Origin: Clostridia bacterium
GTDB lineage: Bacteria > Bacillota > Clostridia > Christensenellales > CAG-138
Assembly: GCA_016292635.1 (NCBI GenBank)
Contig: JAEDIC010000002.1
Span: forward strand, 29,609-93,608
DNA: 64,000 nt
Direction: 5' to 3'
Shown here piece by piece: positions 18,665 to 63,881 of this stretch. Position 1 is the first letter of the stretch, and each line of letters begins with the position of its first letter. The translations under genes and the position numbers were made by a program. The notes under the pieces were generated by a model that searched no databases, was not told the origin of the DNA, and saw only the letters and a program-made list of their open reading frames with translations.

Positions 18665-19703
18665 TGAACTGCACCCCAAATGTTAGACAGTATGATATAC
18701 TAACTAACAAGTGGGGTGTTTAATTATGCCAAGAGGAGTACCGAACAAAAAATATACGCCAGAGTTCAAAAAACAGGTAGTAGAAACCATGCAACAAGAA
18801 AAGTTAAGCTACAGCGAAACGGCAAGACGTTATGAAATCAACGATCACAAAAGAATTATGACGTGGGAGCGAATTTACATAACAGAAGGACCGGACGGCT
18901 TTTCTGTTGAACGCCGTGGTCGTGGCAGTACAGGCCGTCCGCGGAAATTGCCTAAAGAGATAAAAGAAGATTTGCTTGCGGAGGTACAGCGACTGAGAGC
19001 GGAGAATGACTACTTAAAAAACTTGCAAGCCTTGGTTTTGGAAGACGAGCGACGCCGGCACAAAAAATGCAGGTAGTTCAAAATCTGAGGCAACAGCACT
19101 CTTTGGAGATTCTCCTTTCAATCGCTCAACTACCACGAGCTACCTTTTACTACCACCTGAAGAAATCTGACCAAGCAGATAAGTACAAGGAAGCTAAGGA
19201 TGCAATAACAGACATCTATTGTGAGAACAAAGGAAGATATGGATATCGCCGAATCACAGCAGAGCTGCACAACCGCAATATGCCCTTGAATCACAAGACA
19301 GTACAGCGGCTTATGAAAGAACTGGGATTGGTCTGCCGTGTCAGAATGAAGAAATATCGTTCCTACAAAGGAGAGGTTGGCAAGATAGCGCCCAATCTGT
19401 TAAACAGAGATTTCAACGCCAACAGACCGAATGAGAAATGGGTAACCGATGTAACCGAGTTCAACTTATTTGGAGAAAAACTGTACCTTTCTCCTATTCT
19501 GGATCTGCACAGCAGCGACCTGGTTTGTTACACCATTTCGGATCGTCCGGTTTTGAGCATGGTAACTACCATGTTGGGTAAAGCATTTGAAACATTACCG
19601 GATAATACAAATCTCATTCTCCATTCAGACCAAGGATGGCAATACCAACATAAGCAATATCAAAGGATGCTCGCCCGAAAAGGAATACGGCAGAGTATGA
19701 GTG
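18665..19703 (+). mobile_element. IS3-family (IS150-like) insertion sequence, 3'-truncated
   Basis: The left end is TGAACTGCACCCCAAATGTTAGACA. orfA and orfB overlap at an A6 run (19062-19067) suitable for -1 frameshifting. OrfB ends abnormally after ...GIRQSMS, before the DDE glutamate region, and no right inverted repeat is present. Confidence 0.8.
18726..19076 (+). CDS. IS3-family transposase OrfA (HTH)
   Basis: MPRGVPNKKYTPEFKKQVVETMQQEKLSYSETARRYEI... with a C-terminal leucine-zipper-like LRAENDYLKNLQAL. Confidence 0.8.
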   Translation: MPRGVPNKKYTPEFKKQVVETMQQEKLSYSETARRYEINDHKRIMTWERIYITEGPDGFSVERRGRGSTGRPRKLPKEIKEDLLAEVQRLRAENDYLKNLQALVLEDERRRHKKCR

Positions 19704-19726
19704 GCTCAATCCCAAATTCTGTGTAA
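19067..19726 (+). pseudogene. IS3-family transposase OrfB (DDE integrase core), C-terminally truncated
   Basis: NEKWVTDVTEF (first D) and LILHSDQGWQY (second D) are present. The segment carrying the catalytic E is missing, and the frame runs into unrelated sequence (GSIPNSV stop). Confidence 0.75.
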
Positions 19727-19744
19727 ACACCAAAATGACGTAAA

Positions 19745-20154
19745 ATAGAGCAAATATTTATTGGGCGGGAAGGCCGGAAAACGGTATTCCCGCCTTGTAT
19801 GCATTGTAGCCGGAGCCTGGCGGCATGTCAAGGACAGCCGTAAGGCCGTTCATTTTATCCTTGACGGGGCGGCGGGATACGGCTATCCGGGAATTCTGTC
19901 TGCGAAAAATATCTCCGGTTGGGAATGGATTGCGCCCCAGTCCTGTTGTTCCGGTAGTCGTACCTGCTGTAGCCGAGCTCTTCTTCCAGCTCCGCTTCCA
20001 GGCCGCCTTCCAGCGTCATAGCCACAAAGTCCTTGAACAGTTCCTGTACATCCTCAAACGTCTTTAATTCGATCCCCTGTTCCTGCGTCCATTCCCGCAG
20101 CCTTGCTCGGTCTGCTCGCCTCTGTTGTGGTGTACGTGTGTCCTTCTTACCCAT
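19745..20154 (-). pseudogene. IS256-family (mutator-type) transposase, N-terminal fragment, frameshifted
   Basis: The translation ...FEDVQELFKDFVAMTLEGGLEAELEEELGYSRYDYRNNRTG matches the conserved IS256 transposase N-terminal region. Similarity then continues only in another frame and stops about 19745. Confidence 0.6.
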
Positions 20155-20376
20155 GTTTAAAGCCTCCGTTCGGGTGCTTCTATCTTACACTCTTCCGGAG
20201 GTTTACACAATTTATGGGATGATCTCTGCGTTTGTTTTTTACTCTCCATATAAGTTTCCCCCAATGAAACAATTAACAGATCAAAAGTTACTATCACTTT
20301 CTCTTTAAGGGAAATGTATTTTTCCCTGTGCGTATATGTGGTACAATGAATCAAATAAAATACGGAGAAGCTATAA

Positions 20377-21162: not shown

Positions 21163-21238
21163 TCGTATACGAATCGCTGATAAAGAATCGACAAGTTTCT
21201 AATGAGACCTGTCGATTCTTGCTGTTTTGCAAAATCTT

Positions 21239-21300
21239 CAGTGCAGATTCTGCACTACTTGATTATGTGCTGGATAAAATTTGCAGTGCAGATTCTGCAC
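21239..21300. repeat. two copies of CAGTGCAGATTCTGCAC, each containing the 15-bp perfect palindrome GTGCAGATTCTGCAC
   Basis: Exact copies at 21239-21255 and 21284-21300 (45-bp spacing). Each is followed by a-n-TTGATT. Confidence 0.9.
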
Positions 21301-21582
21301 AAATTGATTTTCCGCCATTCACTATCACCATTTAGTAATCATACCAAACCCATATACAGGATTTACACCGCAATATAATCACTATTTCCCTTTTTGCTTT
21401 TCAAAAAGCCGTTGGACCAAAATGTCAAAAATCCCCGTTTTGTGGGATAAACGCCTACCAGCAGAGCCTCAGCATGGGAGGACGACAAAACGCCCTTCAT
21501 ACTGGAAACCCTTGTTATTTCAAAACATACCACAATAACCCCCAGGATGCAATACAGCTCTATCCGTATCGCCATACCGGTA

Positions 21583-28953: not shown

Positions 28954-28974
28954 ACGTTTCAGTTGGAAATGAAA

Positions 28975-29256
28975 AGGCCATGACGGCGAAATAGTACCAT
29001 GAACGGAGCCTTCAGAGAGTTGACGGACGGTGCAAGTCAACAGGCGGCCGCTTGGGAATACACGCTATCAGCCTCCCCCCGAAAGGAAACCGGTAGGCGG
29101 GGACGGGCTTCACCCGTTACAGTGATAGAGTATAGGGCGGCTATGCCGCATTGGGGTACTCGAAAAGGTCCGGTATCGCGAGAACCGGATGAATTGAGGT
29201 GGTAACACGGGATTTGGCGCTCGTCCTCTGCAAGGCAGGGGACGGGCCTTTTTGTT
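28975..29256 (+). promoter_or_regulatory. T-box riboswitch leader, probable Tyr (UAC) specifier
   Basis: AGTA (28993-28996), AGAGAG (29014-29019), distal-loop GGTGCAA (29029-29035), specifier context GAA-TAC-A (29056-29062), T-box sequence AATTGAGGTGGTAACACGG (29192-29210), and terminator stem plus TTTTT (29216-29253). Confidence 0.8.
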
Positions 29257-32824: not shown

Positions 32825-33024
32825 CTGCCTGTGGAAAAACCTCTTGGAGGTTAGGAGGCCGCGCCCCCCGGAGGCTTCAATCGGATTTGGCGGCCTGTGG
32901 GACAAATCCGCAAAAGCCTCGCACAGCAAGGTTTTTTTACATGGCTCCCTGGCCGTGTTGTAGGCGCAGGTGAGCCATGTAAACGAAAAAGTGGCGCAAT
33001 GTCACTTTTTCCACAGCCTGAGCC
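32825..33024 (+). repeat. multi-hairpin intergenic repeat, copy A (full length)
   Basis: About 80% identical to 46192-46387. Terminal inverted repeats are CTGTGGAAAAA (32829-32839) and TTTTTCCACAG (33006-33016). It lies between the flavodoxin-like stop codon and its terminator hairpin (33022-33050). Confidence 0.85.
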
Positions 33025-33071
33025 TTTCGAACGCTCGGAAGGATTTTTTTATATTGATTTAATATATGCTG

Positions 33072-45291: not shown

Positions 45292-45452
45292 GAAAAAGAG
45301 AGACCGGGCAGATATTTCTGCCATGATAATACAAATCGGCCGGGGTTCCGCAGCTCTTTGCATGGCTCCTTGGGCAGGTATTCTGACTTTGCGGGATGTA
45401 TCCCGGCTTCACAGTGACGGCCTCGCGGAAGAATCTCACTTCCATTCCCCTG
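45292..45452 (-). promoter_or_regulatory. cobalamin riboswitch
   Basis: The minus-strand RNA reads GGGGAAUGGAAGUGAGAUUCUUCC...GCCGUCACUGUGAAGCC...AAGUCAGAAUACCUGCCC, which includes a B12-box-like element. It is followed by the terminator GGCAGAAAUAUCUGCC plus a U-rich run. Confidence 0.75.
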
Positions 45453-45538
45453 TTGACCGCCGAAAAACGGCGGAACCCAAAGATGTGTTATTCGGTTGTG
45501 GTCATATCAATGATACAGCTTTTTTTCGTCCCGGTCAA

Positions 45539-46036: not shown

Positions 46037-46191
46037 TTTATTATTCTCCTTAGTTTTGTTTTTTCCCCGCATAAACGCGGTTTGGTGAGGATGGTTTCGA
46101 ACTCACCGGGCGTAATGATAGCAGAAAAGACGAAAAAATTCAAGCTTCACAAGGTTTTTCCCACAAAAAGAGCCATCCTTGCGGGATGGCG

Positions 46192-46387
46192 CTGCCTGTC
46201 GAAAAGCCCCTTGGGGGTTCGGGGGGGCGGAGGCTTCAATCGGATTTGGCGACATGTGCGGCAAATCCGCAAAAGCCTTGCGCGGCAAGGCTTTCTTTGC
46301 ATGGCTCCCTGGCCGTGCCGCAGGCACAAGGGAGCCATGTAAACCTCGAAAAAGTGGCATGATGCCACTTTTTCGACAACCTGAGCC
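46192..46387 (+). repeat. multi-hairpin intergenic repeat, copy B (full length)
   Basis: Hairpins at 46206-46218, 46241-46269, 46273-46293, 46300-46339 and 46347-46375. Terminal inverted repeats are TGTCGAAAAG (46197-46206) and CTTTTTCGACA (46368-46378). It is flanked by a 21-bp duplication (46171-46191 and 46384-46404). Confidence 0.85.
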
Positions 46388-46427
46388 ATCCTTGTGGGAT
46401 GGCGTCCATTCGCTTATTCCGTTCTTT

Positions 46428-46631
46428 TTATGGCTGCAGAAGTTTCAGTCCCTCTTCTGAAAGGTTTTCGGGAGCCAGCGCTGTCCGCATATGCACATGG
46501 AGGCGTACGCTGTTTAAATAGGACATAGCCGCATCTTCGGCCTGCTTTGCTTCTTTCACATACAGCGCCAAGAATGCCGGCGCAGGTATAAGGCGGATCG
46601 CTATTCATACGGTAAAGTTTTTGTTTACCAT
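46428..46631 (-). pseudogene. small ORF downstream of the U32 peptidase gene with an in-frame TGA at codon 9
   Basis: AAGGAGGG, then 6 nt, then an ATG (46631). It reads MVNKNFTV-TGA-IAIRLIPAPAFLALYVKEAKQAEDAAMSYLNSVRLHVHMRTALAPENLSEEGLKLLQP-TAA. The post-stop part looks protein-like. Confidence 0.3.
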
Positions 46632-46648
46632 ATGATGCCCTCCTTATG

Positions 46649-59326: not shown

Positions 59327-60554
59327 ACTGAAAAAGGTGTTTGGTTCCGTTGGCGGTAAGATCGCCCTGATACTTTATATTGCTGTTTTGGCCCTGTCCT
59401 GTTGGTTATCATCCACAGGCGCAACGAATATCGAGGTAAAGTGGGTCAACGAGCAGGGAAAAAGTGAATATGGGCTAACTGCCGTTCAAAACTTGCGTGA
59501 TGCCCAGAAGGAATGGGAAGGTTGGGTAGACCAGGAAACGTTGACCAGAGTGATTCAGGAAAACCAGAGAATCAATGCGACACCGGAAGCAAATTCAGAT
59601 AGTGTGCAGCAACGCGATATTGCGTATAGCTGGAAACAGGGCTTTATGCCCATCCGGGAAATGGTGAATCATTCCTATGCTGATGATTTTCGGAAGTACG
59701 ATTATTACACCGCTGACAGAATGACTTCCATCGATGTAGATGCGTTTTACGCGAACCGAGAAAAGCTGCTGACCGATTGGCTGTATGACGAAACGGACGC
59801 GGGCTACTCCATGTATTCTGAACCGGAAAAGCAGTACATTATTGGGCAGTATAGGCAATTACAGACACCATTCTATTTTACATACCACGAAGGCTGGCAT
59901 CAGCTTCTGGAAAACGCCGGATATATTCCCTCACTGGGAATTTTGATTCTGGGTTTTCTGTTGGCTGGCATCTTCTCTAACGAATTCAAATGGAAAGCGG
60001 ATGCGATGTATTTTTCCACCCTTTGTGGCAGGAATAAAGCTACCTCTGCCAAGATCAAGGCGGGTTTTCTGCTGGTGACGGTCCTGTACTGGGGAGCCAT
60101 GCTGATCTATAGCCTGTTTACCCTTTGCTATCTCGGCTTCGAGGGCGGAAACTGCGTTATCCAGTGGCTGCTCTGGAAAAGTATCTATAATCTTAATATG
60201 TGGCAAGCCTGGATGCTGGCTCTCGTATCCGGCTACATCGGCAACCTTTTCCTGGCGTTGCTGACCATGTGGATCTCTGCGAAAACCAAGTCTGCCGTTT
60301 TTGCAGTGACCACACCCTTTATCCTGGTTTTTCTGCCGGCATTTCTGGAAGGAATTCCGGGTTGGTTGAGTAAAATTTCAGGGCTCATGCCGTCCCATTT
60401 GCTGGAACTCTATCAGAATCTGGGCTCCTTCAAAATTCTCACCGTCTTTGGTAAGGTTTTCCGTACTTTAGATGTCAGTATTCCGCTATATCTGATGCTG
60501 TCCATCATATTGGTCCCCATGATGTATCGGGAATATCAAAGGAAAAGAGCATAA
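59313..60554 (+). CDS. ABC-2 type transporter permease with large extracytoplasmic loop
   Basis: It overlaps the ATPase gene. There is one N-terminal TM helix, a ~170-aa loop, then 5 TM helices. Confidence 0.7.
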   Translation: MVRYELKKVFGSVGGKIALILYIAVLALSCWLSSTGATNIEVKWVNEQGKSEYGLTAVQNLRDAQKEWEGWVDQETLTRVIQENQRINATPEANSDSVQQRDIAYSWKQGFMPIREMVNHSYADDFRKYDYYTADRMTSIDVDAFYANREKLLTDWLYDETDAGYSMYSEPEKQYIIGQYRQLQTPFYFTYHEGWHQLLENAGYIPSLGILILGFLLAGIFSNEFKWKADAMYFSTLCGRNKATSAKIKAGFLLVTVLYWGAMLIYSLFTLCYLGFEGGNCVIQWLLWKSIYNLNMWQAWMLALVSGYIGNLFLALLTMWISAKTKSAVFAVTTPFILVFLPAFLEGIPGWLSKISGLMPSHLLELYQNLGSFKILTVFGKVFRTLDVSIPLYLMLSIILVPMMYREYQRKRA

Positions 60555-61382
60555 TCATTACAGTACGATATGAATAGCTGCCAAATTGATTCAATATGGA
60601 TTAGCTGCGTGCGAATAGATACGCAAAGATTCCTTGTATTCTTACAGGACTTTTCAAGAGCCTGCATAGTATGATAAGCGTGAAATCAAAAAGGAGGTAT
60701 TACACCATGTGCCGCAGCAATCCTTCTTTCCTACGGTTATTACAGGATGTCCTTCCAATTCGGTGCGGCACAGCCTGGCGTGTAATACAGGATTAGCAAA
60801 AAAGCTCCAAACCAGCCAAATCATGAAACGCAGCCGAAAGAATGAACAGACTATACATCAGGCATGGGGCAGCGGAAATTGCTGCCCTCCCAAGGGCGCA
60901 CCCGTTCATGCTCCTGTTTGATTTCAATTATAGCGCAATTTCATGAATATGGATGTTACGTTGGGAGCCTTATGAAAAGGAATAGAAAACGGATTCAAGA
61001 TTCCCTCGAAAGAGCGTTCCTGTTCCCTTAGTAATTATACTGAGGGCGCACTTCTATACGGGGTAGCCCCCGTATGTGCGCTGGGTGAGACTGAACAGCC
61101 CGGGCACCTGAAGTCCGGGCTGTTTTGCGTCACTTCGTTCCGAACAAGGGGCTGATCTCGCCTGCCGGCTCGGTCAGCGCTTCAAAGCGTTTCACGCTTT
61201 GAGGTCTCCACTGGAGACCCGCGCCCCCTTGCGCCGCGAAAGCGGCTATCTTTGCAGACTTGGTCAGCAGAAACGGTTTTACAAACCATTCCCGCTAATC
61301 AAGTTTTTATATTGTGAGTCTGACCGTCAGTAAATGCTGGCGGTCATTTTATATTCAAATCTTTAAGGAGGTCATTCAAAAA

Positions 61383-61505
61383 ATGCCAAAACAGAAACCT
61401 CTATCCTAACTGGAAGCGGAGAGAGCCGCCTGTGAACAGCGGCTTGCCCAGCTACAACACAAGGCACAGCAGTATGAAAACCGAATTTCAGATTTCGGAA
61501 TTTAA
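61383..61505 (+). pseudogene. small coiled-coil ORF interrupted by TAA at codon 9 (mobile-element-type small gene remnant)
   Basis: AAGGAGG, then 11 nt, then ATG. It reads MPKQKPLS-TAA-LEAERAACEQRLAQLQHKAQQYENRISDFGI. Confidence 0.3.
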
Positions 61506-61562
61506 CTGTCTTACGAACACCCCGCTTAAGTTCCGGCTTTATTATTATGCGTATTTCCCTTA

Positions 61563-62102
61563 CTAGGTAAGCTTACGGCAATACTGGGTATATAGCTTAT
61601 TCGTGCAGTTCGAGCATTCCGGGGTCTCGTTCGAATACTCCCAGAATCTCTCCGAGTACATCAGTATATACAGTTCCCATACCAGCAGCGCCATGAAGAA
61701 CAAGCTCCATGAGTAAAAGTTCTTGGTGATGCAGCAGCGGGCCTTAATCAGCAGCCTTAAAGGACACCATAGCAATACGCAAGTTAGATCGCATACCAAG
61801 AATGCCGCAGTTATCATAAACATGGCGGTATGGTTCAGCGCCTTTGCAAAATACAGTACGGCTATTGCGGCAAGGACCGGCCACAGTACCATGACCTTAT
61901 AGGCGGATCTTGTGGTGGACACCATGTATTCCTTTAGGACAATATTATTTGTCTTATCCACTATGGGCCTGAAATGCGGCGGCAGCCAACTGGAAAAGCG
62001 CTTTCCATACGGGATATCAAACTCCTCCGTCCGCCATATCCGCATACATACGCACATACAAGGCAACGGGCTTCCGCCCTGTTCCCAATAGCCTTGCCCC
62101 AA
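61563..62102 (-). CDS. hypothetical Cys-rich membrane protein
   Basis: ORF with 3-4 TM helices and many Cys residues (CDLTC, WCP, RCC, CSNC). The start is uncertain (62102, 62057 or 62045). No family was recognised. Confidence 0.4.
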   Translation of the reverse strand: MGQGYWEQGGSPLPCMCVCMRIWRTEEFDIPYGKRFSSWLPPHFRPIVDKTNNIVLKEYMVSTTRSAYKVMVLWPVLAAIAVLYFAKALNHTAMFMITAAFLVCDLTCVLLWCPLRLLIKARCCITKNFYSWSLFFMALLVWELYILMYSERFWEYSNETPECSNCTNKLYTQYCRKLT

Positions 62103-62171
62103 AGTTTCTCCGGATTTATGGCTGTTATATTGCGTTATTCCGCTTTTGGGAGATTGGTTTGCGTGAGAGAA

Positions 62172-62918
62172 TCAGGCCAATACCGTAGCCCGCAGTATGG
62201 TGAGCGCTCCGCAGAAACCCACCACGCCGTATATCACCTTGCGCAACGCATCCACGCTTATCTTATTATATACCTTGCCGCCAATATAGTTGGCAAGCAG
62301 CATGGCGGCAATGTTGGGTATCATCAGCCACAGCACCTTTTCGGTGATAAAACCGTTCGCCATGCGTCCCACGGTGGTAACAGCGTTGGATATAACGAAG
62401 AAATATTGTATGTTGACCAGATATTCGTCCTTTGAATGGCTGCAGCTGAGAAAGTATACCACCATTGGCGGCCCGCCCATGGAGAACATTCCCGACAAAA
62501 CGCCGCCTATGCTGCCGGATATCATGGCGTTTTTAGTGTTTGCCTTTATGCTTATCCGTCCGCTGAAGAAGGTGAAGTATATACTCATGGCGCAGAGCGC
62601 TATTCCAAGCAGCAGCATGAGAAGGCTTGGGGCTGCGTTCTTTACGAACACCACCGCAAAGCAGCTTATGATACAATAGGGTATAAGCGGCAGTATAACT
62701 TTTTTCATGCTCTGGCTGCCCCTCATAGTATAAGCCACCACGCAGGAAGCAACCAGCGAGCCAATTCCGGAAAGGGCTGTAGATTCGCCAAATCCCAATA
62801 TCAGCGGATAAAACATCATAACTATCACGCCGTATCCGAAGCCGCTTACCCGCTGAACGAATACCCCGAGAAAAGACGCAAAACCTATTAATGCAAATGT
62901 GGATACCGTCAGGTCCAT
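62172..62918 (-). CDS. TauE/SafE family sulfite/anion exporter
   Basis: 248 aa with 8 TM helices and the typical GFGYGVIVM / GMFSMGGPP patterns. Confidence 0.8.
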   Translation of the reverse strand: MDLTVSTFALIGFASFLGVFVQRVSGFGYGVIVMMFYPLILGFGESTALSGIGSLVASCVVAYTMRGSQSMKKVILPLIPYCIISCFAVVFVKNAAPSLLMLLLGIALCAMSIYFTFFSGRISIKANTKNAMISGSIGGVLSGMFSMGGPPMVVYFLSCSHSKDEYLVNIQYFFVISNAVTTVGRMANGFITEKVLWLMIPNIAAMLLANYIGGKVYNKISVDALRKVIYGVVGFCGALTILRATVLA

Positions 62919-63741: not shown

Positions 63742-63767
63742 AAAAGGGAGCGTTCGCTCCCTTTTTT
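63742..63767. terminator. Rho-independent terminator (A-run/stem/T-run, usable on both strands)
   Basis: AAAAGGGAGCG-TT-CGCTCCCTTTTTT. Confidence 0.8.
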
Positions 63768-63768
63768 C

Positions 63769-63857
63769 AGTCTGTCGAAAAAGTGGCATTGAGCTGCTTT
63801 TTCGATGTTTACATGGCTCCCTTGTGCCTACAGCACGGCCGGGGAGCCATTCAAAGC
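63769..63857 (-). repeat. multi-hairpin intergenic repeat, copy C (3' half only, inverted orientation)
   Basis: The reverse complement aligns with the last ~90 nt of copies A and B (ATGGCTCCCC...GGGAGCCATGTAAACATCGAAAAAG...CTTTTTCGACAG). Confidence 0.75.
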
Positions 63858-63881
63858 ATCTGCCATTTATTGTTTCCCGGA

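Follow-up and report, generated by a model that had tools for sequence, protein, structure and literature searches.

The locus examined here raises the question of what kind of element is represented by a repeat of about 200 bp, folded into a chain of hairpins and closed by terminal inverted repeats (TIRs), that occurs more than once in a 64,000-nt stretch of Clostridia DNA (the window, taken from contig JAEDIC010000002.1). The problem has two parts: (i) whether the hairpins are kept by selection on an RNA or belong to a piece of mobile DNA; and (ii) if the DNA is mobile, how it is moved and how its insertion sites are chosen. The first-pass annotation of the window favoured selection on an RNA structure, and listed a MITE-like mobile repeat among several options. 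The evidence described below answers the first part in favour of DNA. The repeat is a gene-less MITE of an uncultured pig-gut Clostridia species, and it constitutes a new, unnamed MITE family in gut Clostridia, the kind of element being already known.

The window contains two full copies, A and B, and a truncated copy, C (Table 1). The annotation had put the identity of A and B at about 80% and had noted a half copy; both statements hold, because blastn aligns A with B at 79.9% identity over 204 nt (E 5e-48), and C, on the opposite strand, is 87% identical to B. The motifs it gave for the individual copies are likewise present as written, namely the terminal repeats (CTGTGGAAAAA/TTTTTCCACAG in A, TGTCGAAAAG/CTTTTTCGACA in B), the first hairpin (ACCTC-TTG-GAGGT in A, GCCCC-TTG-GGGGT in B) and the inner stems of the large hairpin (GTGTT/GGCGC in A, GTGCC/GGCAC in B, GTGCT/GGCAC in C). 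With the copies from outside the window included, sizes range from 191 to 209 bp, and each copy folds into five or six hairpins. The TIRs are imperfect and about 17 bp long, with the consensus TCAGKCTGTCGAAAAAG when all copies are aligned, and their core, TGTSGAAAA(A)G, is found at both ends of every full copy. The TIR motif has six matches in the 64-kb window, against 0.66 expected; four of these are element ends and two are single-mismatch matches elsewhere. Between the TIRs lie the palindromic modules H1, H1b, H2, H3, H4 and H5, of which H1b is precisely missing from B and from one allele (L140) of copy D, a fourth copy described below. H5 includes the 3′ TIR and also, internally, a copy of this TIR in inverted orientation, and it is for this reason that the 3′ TIR has an alternative to pairing with the 5′ end. 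The copies have no conserved ORF in common. A search aimed at ORFs called within other copies, in which a six-frame pseudo-protein of the element was compared with 5.8 billion proteins, gave no matches.

Table 1. Coordinates of the element copies and of the hairpins beside them in the window
Feature	Position	Strand	Description
Copy A	32825-33021	+	full length, ~197 bp
Copy A 5′ TIR, CTGCCTGTGGAAAAA	32825-32839	+	
Copy A 3′ TIR, CTTTTTCCACAGCCTGA	33005-33021	+	
Terminator-like hairpin CCTTTCGAACGCTCGGAAGG + T-run	33023-33050 (hairpin 33023-33042)	+	abuts 3′ end of A
Copy B left target-site duplication, GAGCCATCCTTGCGGGATGGCG	46170-46191		minus-strand reading: U32-operon terminator hairpin, then T-run
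Copy B	46192-46382	+	full length, 191 bp
Copy B internal hairpins	H1 46206-46218; H2 46241-46269; H3 46272-46294; H4 46300-46339; H5 46346-46376		
Copy B right target-site duplication, GAGCCATCCTTGTGGGATGGCG	46383-46404		minus-strand reading: T-run lost to element
Rubrerythrin terminator hairpin GGGAGCGTTCGCTCCC + T-run	63746-63767	+	adjoins 3′ end of C
Copy C	63767-63860	-	truncated: H4, H5 and 3′ TIR (3′ half) only

The site of copy B exists in two forms among 12 contigs of the same species. Six are filled (the window, L182, L184, L187, L189 and L190) and six are cleanly empty (L007, L181, L183, L185, L186 and L188); the 12 contigs are ~98-99% identical where measured, and the boundaries are the same in all. 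The filled allele has a 213-bp insertion after GGATGGCTC, consisting of the 191-bp element and a 22-bp repeat, CGCCATCCCGCAAGGATGGCTC. The duplicated 22-bp unit is the complete terminator stem-loop of the U32-peptidase operon, and the insertion parts the first hairpin copy from the T-run, which the second copy retains. In genus-level relatives, a single homologous terminator follows the U32-peptidase operon and precedes the QueT leader, without the element. Because of the presence/absence polymorphism, the exact boundaries and the target-site duplications, the repeat is mobile DNA, and these same observations give strong support to the MITE-like option of the annotation. A loop SNP (A/G), which the empty alleles share with the left hairpin copy of the filled ones, fits either loss of the element by recombination between the hairpin copies or recombination among strains.

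Two further features were seen near this site. At 46044-46111 on the minus strand there is a leader upstream of QueT that is conserved across species; its match to the PreQ1 riboswitch model scores 17 bits against a gathering score of 39, and its position and its AAAAAACTAAGGAG tail are compatible with a preQ1-I riboswitch. Between the U32-peptidase stop codon and the terminator, a ~250-bp segment (46405-46648) carries short ORFs, one of which would encode a peptide of 47 aa that looks helical. This species has the segment (window, L007, L181-L190), but genus-level relatives lack it.

Duplication of a whole hairpin is also found at other copies. On either side of D stands AAAGGGAGCGAACGCTCCCTT, a complete terminator hairpin, in a 21-bp duplication, and copy E lies between two copies of a 22-bp hairpin, GCGCCTCYGCTGGGCGAAGGCG, the second being followed by TTTTTT. 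Each of B, D and E is thus bracketed by a direct repeat of ~20-22 bp (about 19-24 bp if the assignment of ambiguous bases at the ends is varied) that contains a complete stem-loop, and a T-run comes after the second copy, as it does in intrinsic terminators. At A, C and F the hairpin adjoins the element on one side, that beside the left end of F being GGCCCGGCAACTTGTTGCCGGGCC. The duplication is thus visible at only three of the six loci; no flanking duplication can be seen at A, and C is truncated. Copy A follows the stop codon (32795) of an FMN-reductase/flavodoxin-fold gene, and its hairpin and T-run lie between this gene and a convergent SpoU-methylase gene, so that the annotation was right to place A in the 3′ UTR of the flavodoxin-like gene, upstream of the terminator. 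The absence of a duplication there could reflect either a replacement event of the kind known for IS1272 (see below) or a later deletion.

The six loci present five different target hairpins of unrelated sequence. All six fold as DNA (-4.9 to -14.7 kcal/mol), and those of A and B were scored as terminator-like by a terminator scan. The diversity of sequence among the target hairpins suggests that shape, and not sequence, is what is recognised. Shape-only targeting does not account, however, for a feature shared by C and D: the rubrerythrin hairpin at C has the same sequence as the hairpin duplicated around D, and the flanks of the two copies have an identical 24-nt sequence, AAAGGGAGCGAACGCTCCCTTTTC, whereas their bodies are only ~87% identical. 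Three explanations are possible: one hairpin copy may now and then be mobilised along with the element, the transposase may prefer a certain sequence, or gene conversion may have acted locally.

Further copies had been expected by the annotation, and three were found. Copy D lies 7.6 kb past the right end of the window (L139:18181-18374; also in L140) and is 91-94% identical to B. Copy E, which is full but diverged, is in an unrelated contig from human gut (L154), and copy F is cut by a contig end; both came from a second metagenome scan, made with the most conserved 18-mer. The GC content of the E contig is 57%, compared with 50% for the window. E is 83% identical to D, whereas the single gene common to the two hosts is 73% identical. 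Dispersed copies are thus located at four loci in ~84 kb of the species and at two in other gut organisms, six known loci in all, with alleles taken from metagenome assemblies, in which repeats may be mis-assembled. An nhmmer profile run over 1.6 Mb of fetched loci found no copies besides A-F, and none in the genus-level relatives, which are syntenic and have ~82% nucleotide identity. A blastn search of plasmids gave no match to the element, a search of phages gave one short match at chance level (33 nt, E = 0.01), and three viral scans yielded nothing real, the TIR-hairpin pattern being too terminator-like (>120 unrelated matches in the viral scan). An exact-pattern scan for the H4 hairpin, the first metagenome scan, returned nothing, and the scan of genome contigs with the H4 pattern gave a single chance match, in a Ktedonobacterales coding region.

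The copies have ordinary chromosomal genes as neighbours, belonging to an uncultured Clostridia bacterium. Many contigs of the same species were retrieved by exact-protein look-ups; they are 99.3% identical over 15-20 kb, and their sources are metagenomes of pig gut and of other animal guts and a single NCBI MAG (GCA_051883915.1). Copy A is at the same site in every such contig that spans the site (L131, L138, L201-L205), with no empty site among those that reach it, and C is present in 10 of 10 contigs covering its site (L139-L148). Since A and C are in all contigs covering them, both are older insertions. Five additional Logan contigs of the species (L206-L210) end at one identical base inside A, after GGAGGCTTCAATCGGATTTGGCGGCC. 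A break point shared by five independent Logan contigs is what a multi-copy repeat is expected to produce in de Bruijn assembly, and it implies that those samples contain more, unseen copies with this k-mer. Copy D diverges strongly between L139:18150-18400 and L140:14610-14830, in strains that are otherwise ~99% identical. One of its alleles has a 9-nt hairpin deletion, a change of AAAAA to CCCCC in the 5′ TIR and several substitutions; the divergence is either hypervariability or repeat mis-assembly.

The rival answer to the first question is that the element is primarily a functional structured RNA, a 3′-UTR stability module or an sRNA precursor, whose spread is secondary. This possibility draws on the hairpins themselves: folding of A and B is strong (z = -5.0 to -6.5 against shuffled sequence), but the two strands fold equally well, which does not favour an RNA read from one of them. 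In a structure count of 58 hand-specified pairs over nine sequences from the six loci, 90.6% of cells were paired, as opposed to 37-49% when partners were slid by 1-3 columns, and so the hairpins are real. There are also changes that look compensatory, with T-A replaced by C-G on both sides in the inner stem of H4 and in H5, and C-G replaced by U-A in H1 of copy A, where the C.A mismatch and the restored U-A pair both still segregate in the population. The annotation took such changes as a sign of RNA selection; however, double-sided changes affect only 4 pairs, where 2.1 would be expected, and the observed value is attained in 55 of 500 shuffles, so that covariation is not significantly above the shuffle control. 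A single compensatory case can, moreover, come from template switching within a quasi-palindrome. The companion argument, from G-U pairs on the sense strand, fares no better. Distinct wobble events comprise 10 G.T (pairing on the plus strand only) and 13 A.C (wobble on the minus strand only), and without a strand bias in the mismatches the case for RNA selection does not hold; the three G-U pairs that A has in its inner stem are peculiar to that copy. H2 is a stem-loop unchanged in all copies, but its invariance in E and F was forced by the search pattern that found them. All copies are placed for co-transcription as 3′ UTR, yet the orientation relative to the upstream gene is antisense for B and E and sense for A, C and D, and the position of A within a 3′ UTR follows from the preference of the element for terminators. 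Half of the strains do without B, and H1b is deleted in B and in the L140 allele of D. Copy A carries 9 of the 146 differences between two strains in its 200 bp, where 1.4 would be expected; it is thus under no strong sequence constraint, although some of the excess could reflect repeat assembly. Rfam has no match to the element at the gathering score in the whole window. Relaxed scans of A, B and E gave chance-level matches only, the best being a radC RNA in B (20 bits against a gathering score of 40, E = 0.058), which is absent in A and E and was rejected. Nothing here indicates a strand-specific functional RNA, the evidence gives no support for one, and we regard this alternative as improbable.

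Alternatives to a conventional DNA transposon should also be weighed. The element might be the relic of a single-stranded DNA transposon mobilised by an HUH enzyme: a PATE of the IS200/IS605 type, or a REPIN dependent on a RAYT. Such an origin would suit the association with extragenic palindromes and, on the assumption that subterminal hairpins are the recognition sites, the common base (CGAA...TTCG) of H1 at the 5′ end and H5 at the 3′ end. It is nevertheless very improbable, because the element has conventional TIRs and duplications of 20-22 bp in flanks without a common motif, whereas the HUH mode involves no duplication and a fixed tetra- or pentanucleotide target; in addition, no Y1/TnpA, TnpB or RAYT is present among the Pfam-annotated genes of the window and the same-species loci. 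Barely credible is a SINE-like retroelement, the structured transcript of which would be copied by TPRT at nicked terminator hairpins. The length of the duplication (about 19-24 bp) is indeed closer to TPRT than to classical DDE staggers, and the element is always transcribed within a 3′ UTR; the loss of the 5′ half from C would fit 5′ truncation, but this is one case only. TIRs are present and an A-tail is lacking, however, insertions are found in both orientations, no reverse transcriptase was seen in any fetched locus, and Rfam detects no group II intron or retron RNA. Bacterial class C group II introns have domains V/VI and insert after terminators without duplication. An intron of this class was rejected as a candidate on the grounds that there is no Rfam intron match, that the element is only ~200 bp long and that a duplication is present.

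We consider it likely that the repeat is a non-autonomous DNA transposon (MITE) of ~190-200 bp that is moved in trans by a shape-recognising transposase. The transposase, encoded elsewhere in the genome, would recognise the shape of the terminator palindrome, as a stem-loop or a cruciform, rather than its sequence, and would join the element ends at the two stem feet, which are separated by about two helical turns; gap repair would leave the hairpin duplicated in its entirety. The upstream hairpin copy would lose its U-tract, and without it the upstream transcript should run on across the element and end at the second copy, with the result that the transcript of the upstream gene would gain a structured 3′ UTR of ~200 nt. 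Recombination between the two hairpin copies could restore the empty site. Counting against this MITE model is the duplication of 20-22 bp, which is far longer than those of most DDE transposons; in ISfinder, the direct repeats of the IS1182 family range from 0 to 60 bp. An IS1182-family-like DDE enzyme is our best guess for the mobilising transposase, although a tentative one that may well be wrong. It is unlikely, as a complete account, that the transposase reads an extruded terminator cruciform and cuts both of its feet ~21 bp apart, with insertions rewiring terminators. If it were true, each insertion would turn a terminator into a read-through site, a structured 3′ UTR and a new terminator, and the family could serve as a natural means of tuning termination and the 3′ ends of mRNAs throughout gut Clostridia.

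Searches of the window, of ~100 kb of same-species sequence and of the fetched loci revealed neither an autonomous element nor a transposase with ends that match those of the repeat. The Pfam-annotated genes of the fetched loci include no IS1182-type transposase, and the element has no linked transposase. The remnants of IS3 and IS256 type at 18.7-20.2 kb were rejected as the mobilising element, their ends being unrelated to the TIRs, as was a conserved resolvase gene, which is syntenic in every genus-level relative while none of these has the element. The debris itself spans 18666-20230. The IS3-family (IS150-like) remnant has its left end, TGAACTGCACCCCAAATG, at 18666, followed by orfA (18711-19076) and a truncated orfB (19067-19726; HTH_21 + rve), and a minus-strand N-terminal fragment at 19855-20154 resembles, by eye, an IS256-type transposase. 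Two contigs of the same species (L196 and L198) instead have an intact IS256-family transposase and TnpV after the ETF genes.

The closest known behaviour is that of IS1272 and TnSha1, members of the IS1182 family in staphylococci. These elements insert in stem-loops, mostly Rho-independent terminators just downstream of genes, without primary-sequence specificity and in both orientations, and they have terminal inverted repeats of ~16-17 bp (PMC5678879, PMC4923244). They delete or replace the stem-loop and leave no target duplication, but the model of the IS1272 authors also allows for duplication of the stem-loop, by a pathway with joining at the 5′ feet (PMC5678879, PMC4923244). The Clostridia MITE is similar in targeting terminator hairpins of differing sequence, in both orientations, and in having TIRs of ~17 bp. 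It differs in that the whole stem-loop is duplicated at B, D and E, although A might fit the replacement mode, and in that it lacks a transposase gene and resides in gut Clostridia; the likeness is one of behaviour. In the literature searched we found no documented case of whole-stem-loop duplication, which is drawn only as the hypothetical IS1272 pathway.

Comparison with other bacterial MITEs (Correia/NEMIS, ERIC, RUP, BOX, bcr1, Chunjie and QMITE) places the element in familiar company. These are intergenic sequences of ~100-250 bp with TIRs and strong predicted structure; they are co-transcribed with neighbouring genes and variable in size, some copies being truncated (PMC10969869). Their duplications are typically 2-9 bp at short sequence motifs, and the same review describes no MITE that duplicates a terminator hairpin (PMC10969869). 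The Clostridia repeat shares their size, TIRs and structure and differs by its 20-22 bp terminator-hairpin duplication. Extragenic palindromes serve as targets for other elements as well. The IS3-family elements IS1397 and ISKpn1 target REP palindromes. The IS110-family element ISPpu10 is reported to use extragenic REP palindromes as insertion targets, and IS1111 inserts into the QMITE2 palindrome (PMC10969869). IS1397/ISKpn1 and IS110 resemble the Clostridia MITE in this choice of target, but theirs is one specific family of palindromes with tiny or no duplications, whereas that of the MITE consists of five unrelated terminators, duplicated whole.

The MITE family does not open a new class of system. 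It offers a clean case from nature of structure-directed transposition into intrinsic terminators, in which filled and empty alleles are available and the whole hairpin is duplicated, and it complements staphylococcal IS1272/TnSha1, in which the hairpin is deleted. It could help to define how some transposases read the shape of DNA. At a practical level, such repeats break short-read assemblies of gut MAGs, they also make 3′ UTRs longer, and scans for non-coding RNA can misread them as conserved structured RNAs.

Finally, we note several features elsewhere in or near the window. Two regulatory leaders reach the Rfam gathering score: a T-box leader at 28971-29231 on the plus strand, before a gene of the beta-eliminating-lyase family, and a cobalamin riboswitch at 45356-45495 on the minus strand, before a DUF4430 gene. 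Between an ABC-type operon and a TauE gene there is a strain-variable segment (L139:7426-8987, corresponding to window ~60554-62172), in which the small ORFs differ among contigs of the same species (132 aa; 94 + 111 aa; 179 aa). At 21231-21309, upstream of a MatE efflux gene, two tandem 34-nt units with the palindrome TGCAGATTCTGCA look like operator sites.
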